A stretch of 64,000 bases of DNA, from assembly GCA_000146465.1 (NCBI GenBank), contig CP001951.1. One strand, 5' to 3'. The translations under genes were made by a program, and so were the position numbers. The notes under the pieces were generated by a model. The model had not been told where the DNA came from and made no database searches. It saw nothing but the letters and a program-made list of their open reading frames with translations. Below, piece by piece: positions 2,942 through 36,076 of the stretch. Each line of letters starts with the position of its first letter. Position 1 is the stretch's first letter.

Positions 2942-5900
2942 ATGGAGGAAAGATTTGAGTGGAGATGGATGGGATCCCCTCTTGAGGAAAAGCTGCATGA
3001 ATATATCCGGAGCATGGTTGAAGAGGAAGACCTTGACTGTCTTGCTAAGAAGATCACTGCCTACTTTGACATATGGCCATTCAAAGAATTTTCCCTTAGA
3101 TGCTGGAGAATACTCAGCGACAAACTCATTGATATCATTTCCTCACTGGAGAAGAAATACTTTTCCGAGGGAATACAAATGTTCAAAATGTCTGAGGAAG
3201 ATAAAAGCCTTCTTATTGGAATTTTCAAGCTCTTTCAAAGGATATTTGGGTATTCAAGACAAAGACATCCTCTCGATGTTTCTACACAAGTTATGAAGTT
3301 CATATATGCAATGGATCTAGATGTTGTGATTGAAGCACATAAGATGCTTGTGTTCTGCCTTAATTATTCGATTGGGCTGGATGAGTTTTCTGATGACCAT
3401 GACATTCTGTTCAAATGCCTAGGAATCAACTCGGAGTTAAATGGAGAGAAGATCCTTAGTCTCTCGGAGAAGGCCTTTGTGAGTATACCCAAGGATCTAG
3501 AAGGAGAAGATGTGTTTTGGACTCTTAAGAAGAATGTAGATGAGTATGGAAGAGGGAATCTTGTGTTTGAACTTCGGCAAAGAATAAATAATGAAAACAG
3601 AGATGGCCTGAATGTGTTGAAGGTCCTTGGAACATGTATATTTCTGATCCTTGCAAAGGGAGAAGGAGCTTTTGATGAAATTGTGGAAAAAATAGACTTT
3701 GGAGAAATTTGGAGATTTGCAGGCGAGGAATTATCCGAAAACATGGAATTTGCCATCATGAACCTTCTGGACATATTGATCTATGACGAATTTGACTTTG
3801 GAAGGATCTCACGAATCCTTGAACTAAGCAACACCAAAGGATTTTTCTACAAAAGATTTGTAAATGGATTTGATGAGTGGACGTTTGAAAGACACATGGT
3901 GTTTCTTATTTACAACACACTCGTGGGAAGCCAAAAAACGAAGTACCTCAAGATGAATGTCCTTATGGAAGTACTTCCGAAATTTCATGAATGCTCGCCA
4001 GATGTTCGATATCACTTTCTTCGTACAGTTAGAATGCATTGTAAGGAAACCAATTCCCGTGGAACTGCCGAGTTTATTTCCAGAAACGGCGTAGGGATTT
4101 TAACAGAATACCTTAGACATGCAGAAAAATACGATGTAAATGAAAATGTAAATCTCAAATATTCGTTGAAGATACTAAGTGAGATCTACATGGACGAAAG
4201 GAACAGAGGAGTGGTGGGGAATTTCGAAGACAGTCCTTTTCTTGATGTAATTGTTGCAACTATCCAAAAGCTTTGCCTTTTTGATTCCCGTATTGTATCT
4301 GTTTGTATAGGAATACTATCTTCCTTCATGTTTGAAGAGCCGCTGAATCTGCCCATATTCATGGAAAGAGGAGTGAATGTAGTTCTGAAGACACAACTAT
4401 CTGTTGAGCATACTCTGGAATATGTTTCTGCATTTGTTTCTTATATTGATGCATTTTCCTTGAACCTCTCCTTTCAGAAGGAGATATCTCATGGGGAATA
4501 TCTCTTTAAGCTTCTAGTACTATGCAGAGAGGAAGAGTTCCTTGGTTCAATGAGCAATACAAACAAGATGGTATCCCTTCTGAATGTCCTCATAATGCAT
4601 CATCCGATATTCAAGGAGGACATCTTAAAGTTCTACAGGTTTGAGATTGGGTATCTGAAAAATCTTTTTTCGGAGGAGTCAAGCAGTCTTCTTGTAGAAA
4701 AGGAGTACTGCATCGAAATCTTCAACAACTTTTTCAGTCTTGTGGAAAAAATGGAGGTTTATCCCGAAGAGAAAGACGCCGACGGATTCTTTAACAATGT
4801 ATTTGATCTGGTTACCAATCCGGCGTATTCTTGCAACATGCAAAACTTCTTCAAGGGATCTTTTGGAGAGGTCTACCGAACGATCTATAGAGAATCCCGC
4901 ACATCTCTTGATAAGCCGTTTGAGCAGTTGATATCCGACACAATGAAGATCATAGAGCTTAGTAGAATGAGCGAAGAACAGGATACAAGAGATTGGAAAA
5001 AAGCCATGAAAATGGAGCAGTGGTGCGGGGCAGAGGCTGATGAACTGATATTTTCTTATGAAAGTCAGATTTCCTTGGCCTGCATTCTTTGCGAAGATTT
5101 TATGGAGCTAATAGATAATGGGGTAAAGACAAGACTGTTTAAAGCAATGGCAGACCTGTATCTTATGCTCATCCGATTCTCGGGAGCCTTTATTTCGATC
5201 AGCAACTTTGAAGAGCACAGGTTTTTATCTACATACAGATCTATAAGACTCAAGCTTGAAGAAAGCACCACAAAGGAAAGCATCCGATTGCATTTGCTGC
5301 AGTCTGTGTATCTTTGTAACCTGTTTCTACTCCAGAGAATGTACCTTTTGGAGATCAAGGATTCATTTGACAAGACTCTTGAACTTGTTGAGAGGCTGGT
5401 GGAAGTAATGGCTCTTGAAGGAGATGACTCGATTACCCTTGGACTAAGAGCGATAGAGAGGCTGAGCAAGAACTTTGGGAAAGAGCACTATGAAGCAATA
5501 TCTAGAGAATGGTTTATAAAGAGCTTGCTTAAACCCCACTCTAGAAGCGACAGGTTAATTGCAGTTATAAACTTCCTTTCGTCCCAATTATCATCCAAAA
5601 TAAATAGCGATCCGAAGCTAAGGAGTATGCTTCTGGAGTATCTGGAAGAAATAGACATCAGCGTCTCCTCGGATCTCCGTAAAGTTGAGCTAAGTAATAT
5701 GGTCATTGAGGCCATTGGGAGAATATTTGGAGATGGAGGGTCGCTTTCAGATGACGAAATGGAAATGATTTTCAGAATTTATGAGAGGTTTTATATATCT
5801 CCATTGTGTTCGAGGCTGATGATTAAGAGAATGATAAGACTACCAAGATTTACAATGAGACTGGTTCGGATAAAAGCATTTCCGACATTCCAATATTTCC

Positions 5901-8900
5901 TTATGAAAGATGAGAAAGTGTATGAGCATGCATGCTTTATTGTAAATAGATTCTTTGAGTATTCTGACGAATTCATTGAAATGGCTAGTAATGTTCTTCT
6001 GTTTGGAACGGTTGGGCGATGTCCTCATAGGATAGATATCAAAGAGATCGGAAAGAAGATTTCAGGACTTGTTATGTCTGAAGTTTCGTCGCCAAAGGTA
6101 CTGTTTTTCCTAATTATGTACTTTCGGCTGCTTCATCGGTTGGGGATGCCCAGACATTGTGGATTTGATCTTGGAAAGTTGATTTCACGAGTTAAAACAT
6201 GTGACGAGATGACTTTGATGAGAATACTCATCAGCTACATAATAACCCCGGATATCGATAGTATTTTGGAAAGGTCTGGAATTCCCTCAAGAAGGATTAG
6301 GAGCAAGGATAGAGAATTCTTAAAGTCCCATGATTTCCTTATATACAGAGACTATGATCTTTTTGTTGAGAAATGTCTAAAGAAGTCGGGTCTTGGACCT
6401 ATAGATGGGATCTGCTTCAAACATGGATGCAATAGGACTTTCTCTCTAAAGGGAGAAGAGATATCTGTATCGGACAAGGAAATCGACTGCAGCAAGACTT
6501 TCATTAGAAAGCTCGTTCTTTTGCTGGATACCCAAGAATATTTCGGAATGGTAATTCAGCTTCTCTGCGAAATGATGTTTAACCATCCATCTCTTTTGCA
6601 CGATATATGTAGATATCAGGTTTTGGACATTGTGTATGAAAGATGCATTAGAAAAATGGATGTATCAAGCAAGCACAAGGTGACTGGAGAACTGCATTGG
6701 GGTATAATGCTGTTTGTCATTGGACTCTATTCGGAGGTTCTTTTGTCGAAGTCCAGCACAGGTTCTGAGAAGAAAAGCGAGACTGAGCAAGAAAACACAA
6801 GAAAGAGTCTTCCATCTGTATCTGACTTTCTCCTTGAAAAGATCAAAGATGGATCCAATGAGGACTTTCTGAACGTGTCGTTCATACTTGTTAGAAGCCT
6901 CACACCATTGTTTATTCTAAGGCACGAAGATGAAGAAGATACAACCATGGAGAGGTTCCGAGAGATTTCGATTTTTATGGGATCAGTAGGGATCTTTGAG
7001 AAGATTATCAAGAGAATAATTGCTGTTGATGAAAGCGACCCAAAATACATAACATGCATCCAATGTTCGCTGGACTATCTTGGAAGGGTTTTTAGGCATT
7101 GCTACGGCGACATTCTTCAAGATCTGGACGACTATGGTGACGACGAATCCCGTGAGATTGAATACTATAGTCTCGTTTCCGAGGACCATGGATTTGAGGA
7201 AAGTATTTTTGACTCCGACGAGAGCTATTTTTTTGATGATCCACCATTCCATGAAATTGAAGAGGAGAGGGCCATGGAGTCTGATGAAGCGGAAAGCTCC
7301 TCACAATCGGAAAATACAGTGTTCATCAAAAGCATTGAAAACGATCATGAGATGCCAACGGAAATGTATCTGATTAGCTCCGAGTATTACAATATTTCTG
7401 CAGAAAGTAGAACCGAGATCGAGGCTCTTATGTGCAGAAAGCTCTACGTCGACTTAATTGATAGCAGCACAAGCTGCTATACCTGGATGGTTAATAATTT
7501 CCAAAAGAGTATAGTTTGTGAGCTAAGGGAGCCGAGTGTTCATTGTAAGGAGCCTGAGAGGTCTTTGAATGAAGATGACAAGGATGAGGGCTATGTCACT
7601 GATGGTGAGGAAAAGATGATATGGAATTTCGAACCAACAAACGATGAAGATAATCTGGAAGATACAAATGAAGCCTTGGACACTTCAAATCCACCAGATA
7701 GAGAGGAGATAGAAGAGGAGAATGAGGACGTTGGATCCTCGGAATCTGATGTCGGGTCTCAGAACGGAGAGATTCCGACTCTTGACCCTGATAATCTCAA
7801 CAGAATGGAGGAAGACGAGCTAAACGAAGTTCTGAAAGCCTATTTCGACGAGAGACGATCCCTATCGCTGACTTATATACCTCTCCACACGGGTTTCTAT
7901 GAAAGGCTTTCTTCCCGTGTAAGACCTATGTTTGAGGAGATGGAAAGAGTGTATAGAGAGAGTTTCTTCTACGACATTAGAACCGAGTCTACCAAGGAGA
8001 GTGACGAAGAAATCATGGAAACCAAAGAGAATCTCCTTGAGATGGATCTTTCAACATTTGAAGAATTCATCAAGAAATCTATCGTCGAAAAGGATTTCCC
8101 ATTTGCCAAGAGCTGGAAGTTAGTTGATGCACTTTCCAAGGATACAAAAATGAAGAGTGTTGTCTTCAAAGTATCCAACAGCATGATCTCGTCAATTTCA
8201 TCATCTCAGGAAGGAGACCTTAATAATTACGACGCAGTGAAATTCCGAAGAACTTTGTGCTTTCTTCTTAGCATCGTTAAAAGCTCAATAAGGTACTATG
8301 GCTATTTCCGAGAAAACCCTGAAATTGTAAGAAAAGTTTTTATTCTTCTTGGAAAGGTGAAATTAACCAATGATCTTTTGAGACTAGTGACTGACTTCAG
8401 TGTTATCTTTAGGAAGGACAAGGACTTTGTCTTTGGCCAAGACATCGATTTGGAAAATATTCTCGGTTGCTTTGGAAGAATGGTTGACTCTGAATGCTTC
8501 AACCTTCTTGAGGAGTTCATGGAGAACACCGCCGACCACTTTGGCCCGAGATTCCTAGATATTATTCTGGTAGAGATAAAGCAGCAATTTTCGATCCTCT
8601 CCAAAGACATTGGAAAGGAGTTTCCTTCCGATGCATTTCTAGAAAGTCAAAAGATATTTTTGAGACTTTGGAAGATGATGACAAAAGTTATAGGAAGAAG
8701 CAATTTGTGTAGTGAGGAAAGAGACATTGCACTTCTGAGTCTGATGCTGAATCCTCTCTGGAATGTGTTTTTTGAAAATCAGAAGAACAAGGAATCGATT
8801 GAAGACCTCATTAATGTATCGGATATCTACGAAGCTTTTTTTGTTGTTGGAAAGGTGTTTGAAAATAGGTTCGGGGAAACAGAGAATACAGGTTGCGCAG

Positions 8901-10183
8901 AGATGTGCAACAAGTTCCAAACATTCTATAAAAAGATTATAGAGTTACGGGCCAAGCAGATTAACTTACTTGCCGATGAAAGACCAGAAAAGCTTTTCAG
9001 AAACTTCAACAGCCTCATAAGTCATTCAATACTAACGTTCAGTAACAAAAAGAAATATCTGTCAAGAATGCTCTCTGTGGAAGGAGTGGATAAATCCTCG
9101 TCTTTCTACAGAGTTTATGTAGATAGGAACGATGTTCTGAGGAGTTCTTATTTTCAAGTGATGGCAAAAAGTCCTGAAGAATTCAGAACAAGAAGACTCG
9201 AGATAAAGCTAACTGGAGAAGAAGGCTTGGACTATGGAGGATTGACAAGAGAATGGCTGGTTCTTCTCTCAAAGGATTTTCTTGATCCTAACTTTGCTCT
9301 TTTTGAGTTTTCCACCGAGGACAAGACAGTAGCTGTTCCATGCAAGAACAGTTATGTTAATCCCGAGCACTTGTCTTACTTCAAGTTTGTCGGGCGTATC
9401 ATGGCAAAGGTTATAATGGATGGAAACTTCATCAACTTGTATCTACCGAAGTTTATCTACAAGCATATCCTTGGGAAGAGTTGCGATCTACAGGACCTAG
9501 AATCTGCAGACCCTGAATTCCACAAATCGCTTGTCTGGATAAGAGATAATTCTGTTGGGAAATCTCTAGGACTAACATTTTCGTTCGATGACGTGAGCTT
9601 TGGAGTTCATAGAACTGTCGAATTAGTAAAAGGAGGAGCAAATATCTTTGTGGATGACTCGAACAAGGAAGAATATATAAAGTTGGCGACACAATACAGG
9701 CTATTTGATGGAGTCGAACTTCAATTATCTGCACTAAAGTCAGGACTGTTTGAAATACTTGGAAATAGAGCTCTTGAGATGTTTGACGAGAATGAACTTG
9801 AGCTTCTAATCTGTGGAATTCCTGATATAGACATTGATGACTGGAAGAGTAATACCCTTTATTATGGATATACAGAGAGCTCAAAGACCGTTATTTGGTT
9901 TTGGAAAGCAGTTAAAAGCTTTGACTCTGTCAACAGGGCAAGACTTCTACAATTTGTGACTGGAACATCCACCTTGCCGTTTGAAGGGTTCTCGCATTTA
10001 CAAGGAAACAATGAGATCCAAAAGTTCTCGATCCATAAGATCTCTGACAGAACAGACAGCCTTCCCACTGCGCATACATGCTTTAACCAACTTGTACTTC
10101 CAGAGTATTCCTCCTATGAAAGCCTTCTGAAATATTTGATGTTGGCCATCAATGAATGCTCTACAGGATTTGGTTTTATCTAA
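2942..10183 (+). CDS. giant HECT-domain E3 ubiquitin ligase (HUWE1/Tom1-like)
   Basis: 2413-aa uninterrupted ORF. C-terminal HECT domain (...LPTAHTCFNQLVLPEYSSYESLLKYLMLAINECSTGFGFI with catalytic Cys). Long acidic D/E stretch (DDYGDDESREIEYY...ESDEAESS) as in HUWE1. CCCCC lies 2 nt upstream of the ATG. Confidence 0.85.
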   Translation: MEERFEWRWMGSPLEEKLHEYIRSMVEEEDLDCLAKKITAYFDIWPFKEFSLRCWRILSDKLIDIISSLEKKYFSEGIQMFKMSEEDKSLLIGIFKLFQRIFGYSRQRHPLDVSTQVMKFIYAMDLDVVIEAHKMLVFCLNYSIGLDEFSDDHDILFKCLGINSELNGEKILSLSEKAFVSIPKDLEGEDVFWTLKKNVDEYGRGNLVFELRQRINNENRDGLNVLKVLGTCIFLILAKGEGAFDEIVEKIDFGEIWRFAGEELSENMEFAIMNLLDILIYDEFDFGRISRILELSNTKGFFYKRFVNGFDEWTFERHMVFLIYNTLVGSQKTKYLKMNVLMEVLPKFHECSPDVRYHFLRTVRMHCKETNSRGTAEFISRNGVGILTEYLRHAEKYDVNENVNLKYSLKILSEIYMDERNRGVVGNFEDSPFLDVIVATIQKLCLFDSRIVSVCIGILSSFMFEEPLNLPIFMERGVNVVLKTQLSVEHTLEYVSAFVSYIDAFSLNLSFQKEISHGEYLFKLLVLCREEEFLGSMSNTNKMVSLLNVLIMHHPIFKEDILKFYRFEIGYLKNLFSEESSSLLVEKEYCIEIFNNFFSLVEKMEVYPEEKDADGFFNNVFDLVTNPAYSCNMQNFFKGSFGEVYRTIYRESRTSLDKPFEQLISDTMKIIELSRMSEEQDTRDWKKAMKMEQWCGAEADELIFSYESQISLACILCEDFMELIDNGVKTRLFKAMADLYLMLIRFSGAFISISNFEEHRFLSTYRSIRLKLEESTTKESIRLHLLQSVYLCNLFLLQRMYLLEIKDSFDKTLELVERLVEVMALEGDDSITLGLRAIERLSKNFGKEHYEAISREWFIKSLLKPHSRSDRLIAVINFLSSQLSSKINSDPKLRSMLLEYLEEIDISVSSDLRKVELSNMVIEAIGRIFGDGGSLSDDEMEMIFRIYERFYISPLCSRLMIKRMIRLPRFTMRLVRIKAFPTFQYFLMKDEKVYEHACFIVNRFFEYSDEFIEMASNVLLFGTVGRCPHRIDIKEIGKKISGLVMSEVSSPKVLFFLIMYFRLLHRLGMPRHCGFDLGKLISRVKTCDEMTLMRILISYIITPDIDSILERSGIPSRRIRSKDREFLKSHDFLIYRDYDLFVEKCLKKSGLGPIDGICFKHGCNRTFSLKGEEISVSDKEIDCSKTFIRKLVLLLDTQEYFGMVIQLLCEMMFNHPSLLHDICRYQVLDIVYERCIRKMDVSSKHKVTGELHWGIMLFVIGLYSEVLLSKSSTGSEKKSETEQENTRKSLPSVSDFLLEKIKDGSNEDFLNVSFILVRSLTPLFILRHEDEEDTTMERFREISIFMGSVGIFEKIIKRIIAVDESDPKYITCIQCSLDYLGRVFRHCYGDILQDLDDYGDDESREIEYYSLVSEDHGFEESIFDSDESYFFDDPPFHEIEEERAMESDEAESSSQSENTVFIKSIENDHEMPTEMYLISSEYYNISAESRTEIEALMCRKLYVDLIDSSTSCYTWMVNNFQKSIVCELREPSVHCKEPERSLNEDDKDEGYVTDGEEKMIWNFEPTNDEDNLEDTNEALDTSNPPDREEIEEENEDVGSSESDVGSQNGEIPTLDPDNLNRMEEDELNEVLKAYFDERRSLSLTYIPLHTGFYERLSSRVRPMFEEMERVYRESFFYDIRTESTKESDEEIMETKENLLEMDLSTFEEFIKKSIVEKDFPFAKSWKLVDALSKDTKMKSVVFKVSNSMISSISSSQEGDLNNYDAVKFRRTLCFLLSIVKSSIRYYGYFRENPEIVRKVFILLGKVKLTNDLLRLVTDFSVIFRKDKDFVFGQDIDLENILGCFGRMVDSECFNLLEEFMENTADHFGPRFLDIILVEIKQQFSILSKDIGKEFPSDAFLESQKIFLRLWKMMTKVIGRSNLCSEERDIALLSLMLNPLWNVFFENQKNKESIEDLINVSDIYEAFFVVGKVFENRFGETENTGCAEMCNKFQTFYKKIIELRAKQINLLADERPEKLFRNFNSLISHSILTFSNKKKYLSRMLSVEGVDKSSSFYRVYVDRNDVLRSSYFQVMAKSPEEFRTRRLEIKLTGEEGLDYGGLTREWLVLLSKDFLDPNFALFEFSTEDKTVAVPCKNSYVNPEHLSYFKFVGRIMAKVIMDGNFINLYLPKFIYKHILGKSCDLQDLESADPEFHKSLVWIRDNSVGKSLGLTFSFDDVSFGVHRTVELVKGGANIFVDDSNKEEYIKLATQYRLFDGVELQLSALKSGLFEILGNRALEMFDENELELLICGIPDIDIDDWKSNTLYYGYTESSKTVIWFWKAVKSFDSVNRARLLQFVTGTSTLPFEGFSHLQGNNEIQKFSIHKISDRTDSLPTAHTCFNQLVLPEYSSYESLLKYLMLAINECSTGFGFI

Positions 10184-21880: not shown

Positions 21881-22372
21881 ATGGGATATAATTTGGCAAT
21901 GACCCCAGCTTTGTTCATGTCAAGGTTGCCCAATCTTGCCTCCTCTCGTATGAATGAAATAAGAAAAGTCTACATAGAAGCCAACAATAGAATTGTTGAG
22001 GAAATAGATGCAGTAACAGAAAAGTTCTCAAAAGAAGTTGAGACCATTCCTAACATCTCGGCCAGCGTAAGGATATATCTTGAAGAAAAAATCAGATCTA
22101 TACGTGAGTTTGTTGTCGATAGTATTGGATTTTCAATAGGCGAGTTTAGAGCCTTATACAATCCCGATGGAAATGAAAGCATAAAAACGAGAAGATTTCC
22201 AAAGTTCATAACCGAGGCACTAGAAAGGAGCTTTGAGATTGACCAATATCCGTCCGAAGCCGAAAAGTCAAGACTTGCAAAAATATGTAAACTTTCGACA
22301 AAGCAAATAAACAACTGGTTTACGAACAAAAGAAATAGAAGCAAAAGCCATGATGGGGGTAGGCAGTACTAG
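21881..22372 (+). CDS. homeobox protein, typical (60-aa) homeodomain at C-terminus (HD1-like)
   Basis: 163 aa. Homeodomain IKTRRFPKFITEALERSFEIDQYPSEAEKSRLAKICKLSTKQINNWFTNKRNRSK, with WF-N-R in helix 3 and no 3-aa loop extension. Unusually long 5' (343 bp) and 3' (517 bp) intergenic regions. Confidence 0.8.
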   Translation: MGYNLAMTPALFMSRLPNLASSRMNEIRKVYIEANNRIVEEIDAVTEKFSKEVETIPNISASVRIYLEEKIRSIREFVVDSIGFSIGEFRALYNPDGNESIKTRRFPKFITEALERSFEIDQYPSEAEKSRLAKICKLSTKQINNWFTNKRNRSKSHDGGRQY

Positions 22373-22908: not shown

Positions 22909-23478
22909 ATGAACATGATAATGGATATATTGAATCAAGTTATGTATGCTGAAGAATGCTATTTCTCCAACAGAGTTAGCAGAGAGAAATTAATGGAAGA
23001 CATAAGACGTCTTCGGAGTGAATACGAGATTGGAATAATGAGAGACTCTGGAAGAGAAGGAATAAAATTCAAAATGGCATTGCTATTTATTCTTAGAAGA
23101 GTGAGACACAAGATTATACTTGAAGACAGACTCATGGAGATGATTGATTCCGAGGTTGCTTTCGTTAGAGGATGTGTAAGCAGTATCATCTCTGAGCCCT
23201 TCGGAGTCAAGCCTGTAGAAACCATGAGGCCTACACAACAAGAAGCAGAGACCAGGTGTGCCAAACCAAGGACAAGGGCCAACTTCCCTATGGACACTTC
23301 ACAGCTTCTGAGATCTTGGCTTAAAGAGAATATGGATAACCCATATCCATCGGATGCCGAAAAGGCATATCTTTGCCAGAAGACTGGCCTTGGTCCTGCA
23401 CAGATTAATAATTGGTTTATAAATGCTAGGAGAAGAATCTTACCTTTCATGAAAGGAAAGCGTGCGAGTTTCAAATAA
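22909..23478 (+). CDS. TALE-class homeobox protein (HD2-like)
   Basis: ORF-track start 22891 is GTG. The first ATG is at 22909. Homeodomain KPRTRANFPMDTSQLLRSWLKENMDNPYPSDAEKAYLCQKTGLGPAQINNWFINARRR, with a PYP three-amino-acid loop extension and WFINARRR, which defines TALE class. Confidence 0.8.
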   Translation: MNMIMDILNQVMYAEECYFSNRVSREKLMEDIRRLRSEYEIGIMRDSGREGIKFKMALLFILRRVRHKIILEDRLMEMIDSEVAFVRGCVSSIISEPFGVKPVETMRPTQQEAETRCAKPRTRANFPMDTSQLLRSWLKENMDNPYPSDAEKAYLCQKTGLGPAQINNWFINARRRILPFMKGKRASFK

Positions 23479-31806: not shown

Positions 31807-32232
31807 TTATTTATTCTTTTTCTCTGCCTTCTTCATTGCTCTCTTGATAGTACCAAAGATCTTATAGCGCTTCTTCCTTTCGTCCTTTCTTACCCTTCTA
31901 GGTGTTATTTGAAGCTCCTTTCCAGTGATCTTTGCTACAACATGCTTCTTCTCAACTGAAGAAAGAACTTCAGCATTTGAATAAATCTTTGCTCTGAGTG
32001 TGGTTCTGTGTGTTCCATACCTATTCTTAAGATTTCCAACTACAATGTTCTTCTTGCTTGTTTGATAGAGCTCAGATATCTTGTCTGTTATTTCCTCTCT
32101 GCTGGGAATAGGCATTCCAGGATGGTATGCAACCACATCCAATTCTTTCCTGGAAAGCAGTTTGTTCTCCTTAAGGCCAGAAATCTCAAGTTCCAAACTC
32201 TATAAGTTAGCTTCAAATACCTCACTTACCAT
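31807..32232 (-). CDS. RPS24: 40S ribosomal protein S24, two exons: join(32232..32230, 32199..31807)
   Basis: Exon 2 matches RPS24 (VVAYHPGMPIPSREEITDKISELY...KKHVVAKITGKELQITPRRVRKDERKKR). The ORF-track frame starts at TTG with an in-frame TAG immediately upstream. An ATG lies 33 nt upstream, followed directly by GTAAGTGAGGTATTTGAAGCTAACTTATAG. Removing this 30-nt intron gives M-SLELEISGLKENKLL... AAAATTTTATCCC lies upstream of the ATG. Confidence 0.75.
32200..32229 (-). other. spliceosomal intron (30 nt) immediately after the RPS24 start codon
   Basis: Minus-strand sequence GTAAGTGAGGTATTTGAAGCTAACTTATAG: canonical GTAAGT 5' site, CTAAC branch point 6 nt from the 3' AG. Confidence 0.7.
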
Positions 32233-32320
32233 TTCGTGAGGGATAAAATTTTCGGAAATATCTGTCTTTCAGGCCTCTCGACCTTCGAAAATATTTTCCT
32301 TAACAGAAAGGCCCTTTGAA
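32233..32320. promoter_or_regulatory. 88-bp bidirectional promoter region of the divergent RPS24/RPS30 pair
   Basis: Contains AAAATTTTATCCC on the RPS24 side and GGCCCTTTGAA on the RPS30 side. These are AAATTT-like and CCC-like signals of the kind reported upstream of microsporidian start codons. Confidence 0.5.
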
Positions 32321-32536
32321 ATGGTAAGTGGAACTTCGGAGTCCTGGAAATAACTTTAGGCAACTATTACAATCAACAAAGCTGGAAAGGTTAGGAATCA
32401 AACACCAAAGGATCCTGTTGTCGAAAAGGAAAGGAAGAAGTGCGGGCGCTGCAGACAACGCTTGAAGTTTGAGAAGAGAAACGAGATGGGATATTTTGAT
32501 GTGATGGGAAAGATGAAGCTGAATCCTCAGTCATGA
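32321..32536 (+). CDS. RPS30: 40S ribosomal protein S30, two exons: join(32321..32323, 32360..32536)
   Basis: Not in the ORF track. ATG followed directly by GTAAGTGGAACTTCGGAGTCCTGGAAATAACTTTAG (36 nt). The spliced product is [59 protein letters not shown]. It matches yeast Rps30 (AGKVKSQTPK...GKMRMNPGPS). An in-frame TAG immediately precedes exon 2, so no unspliced ORF exists. Confidence 0.75.
32324..32359 (+). other. spliceosomal intron (36 nt) immediately after the RPS30 start codon
   Basis: GTAAGTG...AAATAACTTTAG. Same 5' site and branch/3' architecture as the RPS24 intron. Confidence 0.7.
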
Positions 32537-32704: not shown

Positions 32705-33115
32705 TTAGACTTTACTATTAGTTTGACACTCCTCCTGTGTCAAATCTGTGTTTTTCTTCTCGTCATTCTCCATACTATTTTTTTCCGGCTCTTCGGCCTC
32801 AGCTCCTACTGCAACAAGTATAACGGTGTCTCCCCTGATAAAGACATTTCCAAGCTTTCTAGAAAACTCGCTACCCTGCCTTTTCTTTCTTCCCTTATTT
32901 CTACCTCGCGCAGTCCCAAACTCCCTAGCTTCTCTTACCAATAAGTTATAATGCCGATCATATGCTACCACTTTTCCTGTGACCTTTCTGTTGTTTCGTA
33001 AAGAAATCAACACAGGAATCATCTTAACCATGGCCCGGCGAACAAGTGAAAGAGGCCCTTTCATTTCCATCGACTCCTTCTCCCCAGGATTATCTGGATT
33101 GTTCGGAAGAAACAT
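32705..33115 (-). CDS. SMD2: small nuclear ribonucleoprotein Sm D2
   Basis: Sm fold with the SmD2-specific insertion. PVLISLRNNRKVTGKVVAYDRHYNLLVREAREF...RKLGNVFIRGDTVILV matches human SNRPD2 [33 protein letters not shown]...ISKMFLRGDSVIVV. Confidence 0.75.
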   Translation of the reverse strand: MFLPNNPDNPGEKESMEMKGPLSLVRRAMVKMIPVLISLRNNRKVTGKVVAYDRHYNLLVREAREFGTARGRNKGRKKRQGSEFSRKLGNVFIRGDTVILVAVGAEAEEPEKNSMENDEKKNTDLTQEECQTNSKV

Positions 33116-33172
33116 CTATGGGCCCATCCAAACATTAAAATAACCAAATATTTATTACATGTCTTAAGACAA

Positions 33173-34009
33173 TTATTCATTCTTTCTCTTAAGCTTCACA
33201 AACTCCACTAGGCGATCAATAAACCTGCCAGAAGTCTTTCCATGGTAAAAGTTTTCTATAAATCCAGAAATAATCTCGTTGGACACTCTTTCCCAGTACC
33301 TCATTGCAATTCTTATTTCTCGCCTTATGTCTTCAATCTCTCTTTGAATGTCAACATTCTTGATCATCTCATTCATTTTCTTACTCATCTTTATTCTCTT
33401 CATATGAAGGAACGATATATTCAGGTCCTTTGCAGAAACTCCTCTCTCAAGGTTTCTTCGGACATATACATCATAGTTCCTCACTATGTCTGTTATTATT
33501 CCACTAGTACTAATTCCCTTTGTTCTTTTGATCGGTATAAACATCCCCATGTCTTTTACAAACTTGTAGATATCGTCCTTATTCTCTCCCTTGTACGGAA
33601 TGTCATCATGCGCAACAAAATCTATTCTATGCTTTTGAAGGAATTCCGATGTTAACTCCCATGGTGCACTTGTTATAACTTCATCAACATATCTGCAATG
33701 GATTAGTCCTTCAGCTCTTTCTTTTTCGTTCATGACAAGATTTCCCTTAAGTCTTATAGTTATGTCGTCATCTGTAACCCCAACCAGCAAGTAGACATTT
33801 GGAAAAAGATTCTTTGCTTGTTTCAAACTTCGGGCATGTCCATAATGAAATAGATCGTACACCCCATCGCAGTATATTCTAACAGGCCTATTCACAGGGA
33901 CCTTATACATCCCAACTTCAGAGGTCATCTCTTCATACTCGAAGGTATTTCTGTCGGGATATGTGGGAGCCATCATCTTGTATTTCTCTGTGTCGTTTCT
34001 CTTCATCAT
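33173..34009 (-). CDS. PCT1: choline-phosphate cytidylyltransferase (CCT/Pct1)
   Basis: [38 protein letters not shown] (HxGH motif), [34 protein letters not shown] and [26 protein letters not shown] are near-identical to PCYT1. Confidence 0.85.
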
Positions 34010-34128
34010 GGGCTAGGTTTGCAGAACGAAAAATAAAACCAAACAAATTCTCTGTCTGTGTAAGGTTTCTTCACAGTAATCAGAAACAATCAAAGTTACT
34101 AAATCTTTGCCTTTGTTTATTAGAATTA

Positions 34129-34740
34129 TCATTGGATATAGTCCAAGTCCTGAGGAATCCCAAAGCTACTGTTAAACTCTGACTTTTCCATTGCAAACTT
34201 GTTACAGATATAATCTTGTATAACAAAAATGTTGTCAACAATCTTATTATACTCGTCGATTACTTTCTTTCTATCTCCGATAAGCTTGTCATAGACTATA
34301 GGATCTGTTTCTTCGAACTTCTTTAGCTCTTTTTTTTGTTCTTCCTCCATCTTCTCTAGGGAATTCAGCCTTTCTTCCAGCCTGCTTCTCTCTTCCGTGT
34401 AGTTCTTGGACTTTCTTTCGTCTTCTAAGTGTTTTCTCTTGTTAGAAATGTCTTCAGACATTCTTTTACATTCGTCCATAAGCTCTTTACACTTCAACTT
34501 CTTCTTTTGGACTCCTTCAGATGCAAACGACCAATACAGATTGGAGGTTCCAACCTTCTCGACAGTGACAAGACCTTCGTCAACAAGCTGTTGTAGAATT
34601 TCTTTGATCGTATTTACCACTATCCCCTTCTTCGAGCCCAGAGTTTCCAATTCCTGTAACTTGAAGAATGACTTACTTGTTCTTATTATCTCCAATAGAA
34701 TGCTTTTCTTCTGGTCTGCTTTCATCTTGACTGTTGCCAT
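34129..34740 (-). CDS. MND1: meiotic nuclear division protein 1 (Mnd1, Hop2-Mnd1 recombination cofactor)
   Basis: 203 aa from the internal ATG (MATVKMKADQKKSILLEIIRTSKSFFKLQELETLGSKKGIV..GTSNLYWSF...SSFGIPQDLDYIQ). This aligns end-to-end with human MND1 (..KDLEKIAPKEKGI..GTSNYYWAF...RTFGIPEDFDYID). The longer ORF-track frame would overlap the divergent downstream gene. Confidence 0.8.
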   Translation of the reverse strand: MATVKMKADQKKSILLEIIRTSKSFFKLQELETLGSKKGIVVNTIKEILQQLVDEGLVTVEKVGTSNLYWSFASEGVQKKKLKCKELMDECKRMSEDISNKRKHLEDERKSKNYTEERSRLEERLNSLEKMEEEQKKELKKFEETDPIVYDKLIGDRKKVIDEYNKIVDNIFVIQDYICNKFAMEKSEFNSSFGIPQDLDYIQ

Positions 34741-34810
34741 GACTACAGGGCTCCTCTCGAAGTAGCTTATTAGTGTTTCCAATACTTTATTTCCATAGGA
34801 TCTATACCCC

Positions 34811-36076
34811 ATGATGTCGTTAGAGCTGACCAAAGAGAATATCAATGCAGTTTCTCTTGAGCTTGTGAAGAACAAAAAGATGTTTGACAAGAACGTGAAT
34901 TATGTAATGGGTTTCATGCTTAAATCTTTTCCCGAGAAAAACGAGCTTCTTAGTAGAATCAAAGTCCTCAATATTAAATCAAGATCAGCAAAGAAGATAG
35001 ACCCCGAGTCCGATGTTATGGAACAGATAGCTATGAATGTCTTTGCCATAAAGAATCTTGACGAAGGAAGTTTCACCAAGAACATGCTAGCCCTCTTCAG
35101 GGACCCAAGTTCCTTTTCTCAAGCATTCCTTACCTACTTCTATTCTAACTTAAATCTTAGCACTACGAAGACAGATGAGATCTTGAACGGGCTCGTAGAA
35201 TTACTCTTATCTGAGTCCAAACTCAAAAAAAGCTTCATGAATTTTATGAATTCGATTGAACTCTCGGAGGATTCTGAATCTATTTCCCTGGAGGAGGCCA
35301 AAAGTCTACACAAAGCCTCAGATGATCACACCTTTGAAAAGATAATAAATAAGGAAAGTTATGATGAGTCATCAAGCACAGTGATGTCTCTAGTCTCCCT
35401 GGACGACTCTGAAGAAATCAAAAGAATCGATACATCTATTTCCCTGCTGTTTGAAGGAAAGAGAGAAAAGATGTCTATGCTGTCGATACTAGTGTGCACT
35501 AGAGTATTGAACATTATAAGGATCATACTGGAAAACAACTACCCAAGAGATGTAGATGTTATTCCTGTTCTTATGTACATCGCAGAGATAGACCAGACAA
35601 TTTTCAAGAAATCAATGTCTGCTATCAAGATAATATTAAGGAAAACAGATTATAGAGACAAAGAAAAGCTGTTTGAAATGTTCTGTGCTCTACTCGAACG
35701 AAACCCAGGCATTATAAGAATGGCAATGCTTTTTGTGGATACTTGTGGAAAACACTTCAACTGGCCGAGATTCCTTGAAATTATAGATGGGAACGAAGAG
35801 ATTGATCTGGATGTCGTGGATAGGTCTTACATTCCAAATTCTTCCTTCTATGAATTTATATTGTTTGCCGAGGATCCAAGGAGATACATGAAGACAATCA
35901 AAAGCATGATTAGAAACGAGTTAGACTCTTCTCTTCTTAGAGATTTAAAAGAAAAGATTAATGGAAGACCTGATCTAAAAGATATAAAGCCGATCAAAGA
36001 TGCTATAAGCTCCCGTCTTAAGCTATTAAGCCAAAAAAAGTGTTCTAAAAAGGAAAGGAAAGATAACAGTAACTAA
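34811..36076 (+). CDS. hypothetical protein (421 aa), helical repeat-like
   Basis: Clean ATG 70 bp from the divergent MND1 start. No recognised motif. Confidence 0.4.
   Translation: MMSLELTKENINAVSLELVKNKKMFDKNVNYVMGFMLKSFPEKNELLSRIKVLNIKSRSAKKIDPESDVMEQIAMNVFAIKNLDEGSFTKNMLALFRDPSSFSQAFLTYFYSNLNLSTTKTDEILNGLVELLLSESKLKKSFMNFMNSIELSEDSESISLEEAKSLHKASDDHTFEKIINKESYDESSSTVMSLVSLDDSEEIKRIDTSISLLFEGKREKMSMLSILVCTRVLNIIRIILENNYPRDVDVIPVLMYIAEIDQTIFKKSMSAIKIILRKTDYRDKEKLFEMFCALLERNPGIIRMAMLFVDTCGKHFNWPRFLEIIDGNEEIDLDVVDRSYIPNSSFYEFILFAEDPRRYMKTIKSMIRNELDSSLLRDLKEKINGRPDLKDIKPIKDAISSRLKLLSQKKCSKKERKDNSN

Follow-up and report, generated by a model that had tools for sequence, protein, structure and literature searches.

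Whether microsporidia have sex, including the human-pathogenic Encephalitozoon species, is a question that is still open, and the gene MND1 bears on it. Here we examine MND1 of Encephalitozoon intestinalis, which is located on the minus strand at 34129..34740 of a 64,000-nucleotide stretch of chromosome 10 (contig CP001951.1; the whole stretch is called the window below). An earlier note on this DNA had read the gene as a cofactor that acts only in meiosis, had taken its retention as an argument for a cryptic sexual cycle, and had pointed to a functional mating-type (MAT)-like homeodomain locus nearby. What, then, does the presence of this gene say about sex? Our analysis indicates that the gene is very probably a functional MND1 (Eint_101570), encoding a Hop2 partner and recombinase cofactor, and the sequence does not decide whether it serves meiosis or another form of recombination. 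The earlier note identified the gene correctly. Its inference of a cryptic meiosis, although reasonable, is not new, is incomplete and does not settle the matter.

The minus-strand reading frame starts with the ATG at 34740 and is closed by a TGA stop at 34131-34129, giving 203 codons plus the stop. The product of 203 amino acids (aa) is 100% identical to GenBank ADM12482.1, annotated as "putative meiotic recombination protein" of E. intestinalis ATCC 50506. An identical protein is present in three further E. intestinalis records, and no difference was found among the E. intestinalis assemblies compared. A single form of MND1 was retrieved from Encephalitozoon, and the literature list likewise gives one. 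Desjardins et al. (2015) list MND1 as Eint_101570 in E. intestinalis and as ECU10_1600 in E. cuniculi; this listing, together with the GenBank record, means that the gene is already annotated and already part of published inventories of meiotic genes.

The product matches two Pfam domains. The Mnd1 HTH domain (PF03962) is matched by residues 15-73 over all profile positions (1-60 of 60), with E=8.3e-25 and 87.3 bits against a cut-off of 23.5, and the LZ3wCH domain (PF18517, leucine zipper with capping helix) is matched by residues 152-202, with E=6.4e-14 and 52.1 bits against a cut-off of 26.1. A phmmer search of the Protein Data Bank (PDB) sequences pairs residues 7-203 of the query with residues 7-203 of Giardia Mnd1 (4y66_A, E=1.9e-23). 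In addition, the product carries both motifs quoted by the earlier note, with VGTSNLYWSF spanning residues 63-72 and FGIPQDLDYIQ forming the C-terminus, so that its description of the protein as Mnd1 from end to end is borne out by domains, alignment and motifs alike. The match to the Mnd1 family is far beyond chance expectation, and nothing argues against the identity of the gene as MND1.

The AlphaFold2 (AF2) model, calculated from ten orthologues (pLDDT 77), is in line with this assignment. It contains a winged helix, composed of three helices and a β-hairpin at residues 8-70, which is followed by three long helices (residues 80-111, 116-145 and 147-182) and a short capping helix (186-193). 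When the model was compared with the PDB by Foldseek, the only match with E <1e-3 was Giardia Mnd1 (4y66_C, E=7.7e-10, 31% identity over 197 columns). Hop2 chains scored much more weakly, with 3.1e-3 for 4y66_F and 2.6e-3 for the Hop2 winged helix 2mh2, which places the protein closer to Mnd1 than to Hop2. The Mnd1 of Giardia lamblia (crystal structure 4Y66) and the E. intestinalis protein are each 203 aa long and share the same order of elements, namely winged helix, LZ1, LZ2, LZ3 and capping helix; S. cerevisiae YGL183C and human MND1 are further reference members of the family.

These elements can be placed on the minus strand of the window. The winged-helix DNA-binding domain (Mnd1 HTH, residues 15-73) is encoded by 34522..34698. 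Leucine zippers LZ1 and LZ2 (residues ~80-145), defined by the first two long AF2 helices and by the alignment to Mnd1 of 4y66, occupy 34306..34503, and their coiled coils would be the segments that pair with Hop2. LZ3 and the capping helix (LZ3wCH, residues 152-202), supported by PF18517 and by the AF2 helices 147-182 and 186-193, lie at 34135..34287. Within LZ3wCH, the DLDY sequence near the C-terminus is invariant in the orthologue alignment.

The gene was compared with its orthologous loci in E. cuniculi, E. hellem, E. romaleae, Ordospora pajunii and two Logan assemblies. All seven genes are exactly 203 codons long, with zero indels and zero internal stops, and protein identity across the seven lineages amounts to 73-80%. 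ECU10_1600 of E. cuniculi is the direct orthologue, with the same length (203 aa, 78% identity), the same neighbours and no difference of substance; among E. cuniculi strains, MND1 is 99-100% identical and intact throughout. Synonymous sites are saturated in most species pairs, with proportions of synonymous differences (pS) of 0.57-0.89, so that values of omega, the ratio of nonsynonymous (dN) to synonymous (dS) substitution rates, are rough. The least saturated pair, E. hellem and E. romaleae, gives dN 0.075, dS 1.19 and omega 0.063. The conservative, uncorrected ratio pN/pS, where pN is the proportion of nonsynonymous differences, is 0.12-0.15, with bootstrap upper limits of at most 0.21 (<=0.21). 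The dN of MND1 against E. intestinalis (0.106-0.122) is above that of PCT1 and UPF1 (0.046-0.077) and below that of five other neighbours (0.22-0.29).

Constraint is distributed unevenly along the protein. Mean pN is lowest in the winged helix (0.064), intermediate in LZ3wCH (0.105) and highest in the middle zippers LZ1/LZ2 (0.184), which are the least constrained part. This pattern is the one to be expected of a working Hop2-Mnd1 subunit. The intact frames, the low pN/pS and the constrained functional domains together indicate that the gene still works and is not degenerating. The intact frame claimed by the earlier note thus holds in 7/7 genes, and the signs of pseudogenisation that it proposed to look for in orthologues, frameshifts and a raised dN/dS, are not seen in the seven genes, given the omega and pN/pS values above.

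How the protein would work can be proposed from knowledge of the family. By analogy, Mnd1 would heterodimerise through its zippers with Hop2, listed in the literature as Eint_010870 in E. intestinalis and as ECU01_0960 in E. cuniculi. The two juxtaposed winged helices of Mnd1 and Hop2 would bind DNA, and the complex would stimulate strand invasion by a recombinase of the RecA family. Unlike canonical Hop2-Mnd1 systems, Encephalitozoon is reported to lack Dmc1, Msh4 and Msh5. Since Dmc1 is reported missing, Rad51 (Eint_110690 in the same literature listing) is the only recombinase available, and it is the putative partner by elimination. Meiosis, if there is any, would be rare, initiated by Spo11 and built on a Hop1 axis, and would proceed without the Msh4/5 crossover pathway.

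Several points weigh against a functional Hop2-Mnd1 cofactor of this kind. Dmc1 is the specific recombinase through which Hop2-Mnd1 works in budding and fission yeast, and for this reason a partnership with Rad51 only is reached by elimination. HOP2, RAD51 and SPO11 of E. intestinalis rest on literature listings, as these genes lie outside the window. A human HOP2 sequence matches the Hop2 chains 2mh2_A (3.7e-42) and 4y66_B (8.8e-14) and is thus a usable Hop2 query. Moreover, no E. intestinalis expression data were found in the literature, and a full-text search for Eint_101570 was without match. Finally, the saturation of dS in most species pairs makes the omega values rough. We put forward only tentatively that Hop2-Mnd1 has been repurposed as a Rad51 cofactor, either in a Rad51-only, meiosis-like process or in mitotic gene conversion and loss of heterozygosity. 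Hop2-Mnd1 serving Rad51 in a recombination that lacks Dmc1 and Msh4/5 is the only mildly novel reading that is left.

The step from retention of MND1 to cryptic sex has been a published argument since 2005 (Ramesh et al. 2005; Malik et al. 2008; Desjardins et al. 2015). Gill and Fast (2007), who refer to Ramesh et al. (2005), state that E. cuniculi has Hop2, Mnd1 and Spo11, and they also mention the putative mating locus of Burglin. Malik et al. (2008) found Spo11, Hop1, Hop2, Mnd1 and Rec8 in E. cuniculi and did not find Dmc1, Msh4 or Msh5; they concluded that the species 'may be sexual' or secondarily asexual. For E. intestinalis, Desjardins et al. (2015; Supplementary Data 5) list SPO11, HOP1, HOP2, MND1 and RAD51, and no DMC1, MSH4, MSH5 or REC8. 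REC8 is accordingly disputed, being absent in Desjardins et al. (2015) and present in Malik et al. (2008). Within the 64-kb window itself, a Pfam scan of all plausible open reading frames (ORFs) returned no other meiotic gene and only housekeeping genes.

This body of literature leaves part of the argument standing. The earlier note had named the absence of Hop2 and of every other toolkit gene as evidence against its reading, and according to the literature HOP2, SPO11 and HOP1 are reported in E. intestinalis. The inference from retention to cryptic sex is reasonable. With DMC1, MSH4 and MSH5 reported absent, it is not decisive, and the retention of MND1 is compatible with cryptic meiosis without demonstrating it. 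Loss of DMC1 does not by itself exclude meiosis, because Edhazardia aedis lacks DMC1 and yet has a cytologically defined meiosis. We conclude that retention of MND1 is compatible with cryptic sex and is no proof of it.

The strongest alternative is that the main reason for keeping MND1, together with Hop2, is a homologous recombination that depends on Rad51 but is not meiotic. Examples would be the repair of double-strand breaks, gene conversion, or loss of heterozygosity in a diploid whose repair system is stripped down; the presence of MND1 would then say little about sex. The distribution of the gene agrees with this. MND1 is the one toolkit gene found in 14/14 surveyed microsporidian genomes, including those without detected HOP2, HOP1 or SPO11 (Desjardins et al. 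2015). Expression points in the same direction: HOP2 and one copy of MND1 are active at every stage and raised in spores both in E. aedis, whose meiosis is known and which carries two MND1 copies, and in Vavraia culicis. The authors of these data suggest an alternate function for HOP2/MND1. Somatic roles of Hop2-Mnd1 are also documented, at telomeres maintained by alternative lengthening (ALT) and in somatic double-strand-break repair in human cells, in Arabidopsis, and for Hop2B/Mnd1B of Tetrahymena. Together with the expression in E. aedis and V. culicis, which is not restricted to a stage, these roles make the earlier claim that the protein acts only in meiosis too strong.

Three features of Encephalitozoon add to the case for a non-meiotic role. 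DMC1, the meiosis-specific partner, is reported absent; E. cuniculi lacks many accessory factors of homologous recombination (Gill and Fast 2007); and the diploid E. intestinalis is exceptionally homozygous. On the other hand, SPO11 and HOP1 are kept as well; neither has an accepted mitotic role in fungi, and their retention is hard to explain without meiosis-like breaks and a meiosis-like axis. In addition, E. aedis has retained its meiosis in spite of lacking DMC1. Taking both sides together, we regard a mainly non-meiotic role as possible but doubtful.

Copy number and partner presence vary in the same inventory. Encephalitozoon has one MND1 copy and E. aedis two, and in Supplementary Data 5 of Desjardins et al. 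(2015) Enterocytozoon bieneusi has 14 copies and no SPO11 or HOP1, and Nematocida species have MND1 without HOP2. The patterns in E. bieneusi and Nematocida are odd for an obligate meiotic partner of Hop2.

The neighbourhood of the gene raises the further question of whether MND1 belongs, along with a homeobox pair, to a single extended MAT-like region, a reading in line with the earlier note. The pair consists of a typical homeodomain gene at 21881..22372 on the plus strand (163 aa; Homeodomain, E=2.8e-13) and a TALE gene at 22909..23478, also on the plus strand (189 aa; Homeobox_KN, E=3.9e-21). EcHD-2 (ECU10_1480) is the E. cuniculi orthologue of the TALE gene; the two proteins are 75% identical, and identity across Encephalitozoon species is 73-75%. 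Three observations favour a common region: a TALE gene and a typical homeodomain gene adjoin each other; Burglin (2003), as cited by later papers, proposed the pair as a putative mating-type locus; and the pair and MND1 are both located on chromosome 10, with 10.65 kb between the end of the pair at 23478 and MND1 at 34129, which agrees with the 11 kb given by the earlier note. The side-by-side placement of the two homeobox classes resembles the basidiomycete HD1/HD2 loci (b of U. maydis, A of C. cinerea).

The resemblance does not extend further. Unlike in the basidiomycete loci, the pair is arranged in tandem, with both genes on the plus strand and without the divergent transcription expected of an HD-type MAT; no allelic diversity has been found; and membership of MND1 is unsupported. 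Lee et al. (2010) sequenced ECU10_1470/1480 and two other homeobox clusters, as candidate mating-type loci, in E. cuniculi isolates and saw no alleles or idiomorphs there. Four GenBank records of E. intestinalis, a species of which few isolates have been sampled, all carry the same TALE protein, and it forms one cluster per species. Moreover, 13 housekeeping genes lie between the pair and MND1, among them genes for a saccharopine-dehydrogenase-like protein, a zf-CCCH protein, an ABC transporter, an E2 enzyme, S24e, S30, SmD2 and PCT1; the GenBank numbering of the interval, from ADM12468 to ADM12482, agrees with this count. The gene order from the pair to MND1 is the same in every Encephalitozoon genome and is part of the general synteny. 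Because the density is about one gene per kb and the synteny is near-perfect, the distance of 10.65 kb carries no functional meaning. A single extended MAT-like region is therefore very improbable; no functional link between MND1 and the homeobox pair can be demonstrated, the claim of a functional MAT-like locus nearby is unsupported, and proximity is not to be taken as MAT linkage.

It is equally hard to credit that MND1 is an unused relic of a recently lost sexual cycle, intact by chance, although sex has never been observed in Encephalitozoon and Malik et al. (2008) name a secondarily asexual state as an alternative. Against pS of 0.6-0.9 between species, seven lineages have kept 73-80% protein identity, the exact length and a frame free of stops; pN/pS amounts to 0.12-0.15, and the functional domains are the most conserved. 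Over such a divergence, a gene without use would have been lost or broken in these genomes, the most compact known among eukaryotes.

The coding sequence is flanked by signals of the kinds described for microsporidia. A CCC-like motif is located at 34748..34750 on the minus strand, at -10 to -8 of the MND1 ATG, and is kept as AGCCCT in all Encephalitozoon orthologues. At the other end, an AATAAA polyadenylation-type signal is read from the sequence at 34116..34121 on the same strand, beginning 8 nt past the stop; AAUAAA is the polyadenylation signal reported for E. cuniculi (Peyretaillade et al. 2009). The CCC motif is a generic transcription/start signal of microsporidia. In 28/43 genes of the window (65%), CCC lies no more than 20 nt ahead of the ATG, compared with 11% of random 20-mers, and Peyretaillade et al. 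(2009) describe it ahead of essentially all E. cuniculi genes and state that it cannot explain differential expression. The CCC-containing promoter mentioned by the earlier note is therefore present, but there is nothing in it specific to MND1, and we rejected it as a signal particular to this gene. The same paper cites products of 5' rapid amplification of cDNA ends (5'RACE) for ECU10_1600, which means that the E. cuniculi orthologue is transcribed.

Among the 43 genes, several ORFs whose predicted start was TTG or GTG turn out to begin at an ATG farther downstream that has CCC before it. Together with the enrichment, this makes CCC a practical guide to start codons in the window. For MND1, one Logan gene call (P0044) begins at an in-frame upstream ATG at 34812, which would give 227 aa. 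We rejected this start and set it at 34740 because the stretch from 34812 has no cross-species in-frame conservation and overlaps the start of the neighbouring gene.

This neighbour is a divergent gene on the plus strand at 34811..36076, encoding 421 aa. The head-to-head intergenic spacer at 34741..34810 is 70 bp long, is common to both genes and holds the CCC start signals of both; in six other species or contigs its length is 42-70 bp, and the arrangement is kept in all loci fetched. The 421-aa protein has no Pfam match, either alone or across 10 orthologues. Its AF2 model (pLDDT 80.7, pTM 0.74) is HEAT/ARM-like and points to a solenoid of this type, and an orthologue carries the UniRef label 'Symplekin C-terminal'. 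As a hidden meiotic factor it was rejected, being of HEAT/ARM type with nothing meiotic-looking.

On its other side, MND1 heads a tandem block on the minus strand (32705..34740), followed by PCT1 (cholinephosphate cytidylyltransferase, 33173..34009) and SmD2 (32705..33115), and this block is kept in all loci fetched. The adjacency of MND1 and PCT1 is also seen in the gene numbering of V. culicis (VCUG_01233/01234), and in E. aedis the two are one gene apart (EDEG_01364/01366). Such microsynteny is unusually deep for a fast-rearranging phylum.

The window has about 40% G+C (~40%), dense genes and short spacers. At 32200..32359, the ribosomal protein genes S24e and S30 are arranged head to head, each with a tiny intron directly past the ATG. 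S24e, on the minus strand, has its ATG at 32232-32230 and a 30-nt intron at 32229-32200 (GTAAGT...CTAACTTATAG). S30, on the plus strand, has its ATG at 32321-32323 and a 36-nt intron at 32324-32359 (GTAAGT...AACTTTAG). The sequence AAAATTTTATCCC precedes S24e; it is the signal of AAATTT plus CCC that has been described for genes of ribosomal proteins. Further away, a HUWE1-like E3 ligase of 2413 aa with a HECT domain and a DUF913 match is encoded at 2942..10183 on the plus strand. It takes up 7.2 kb, or >11% of the window, in a genome that is among the smallest of eukaryotes.

Retention of MND1 is among the oldest arguments for cryptic sex in microsporidia, and the window adds nothing new to that argument. 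Within this phylum, MND1 alone is a weak marker of meiosis. The constraint on the gene is nevertheless real, and it means that some activity of the Hop2-Mnd1 type is in use. If Hop2-Mnd1 has indeed been repurposed as a Rad51 cofactor, this would account for MND1 being the only 'meiotic' gene that every microsporidian examined has retained, and a mitotic role of this kind would help to explain the extreme homozygosity of Encephalitozoon diploids.
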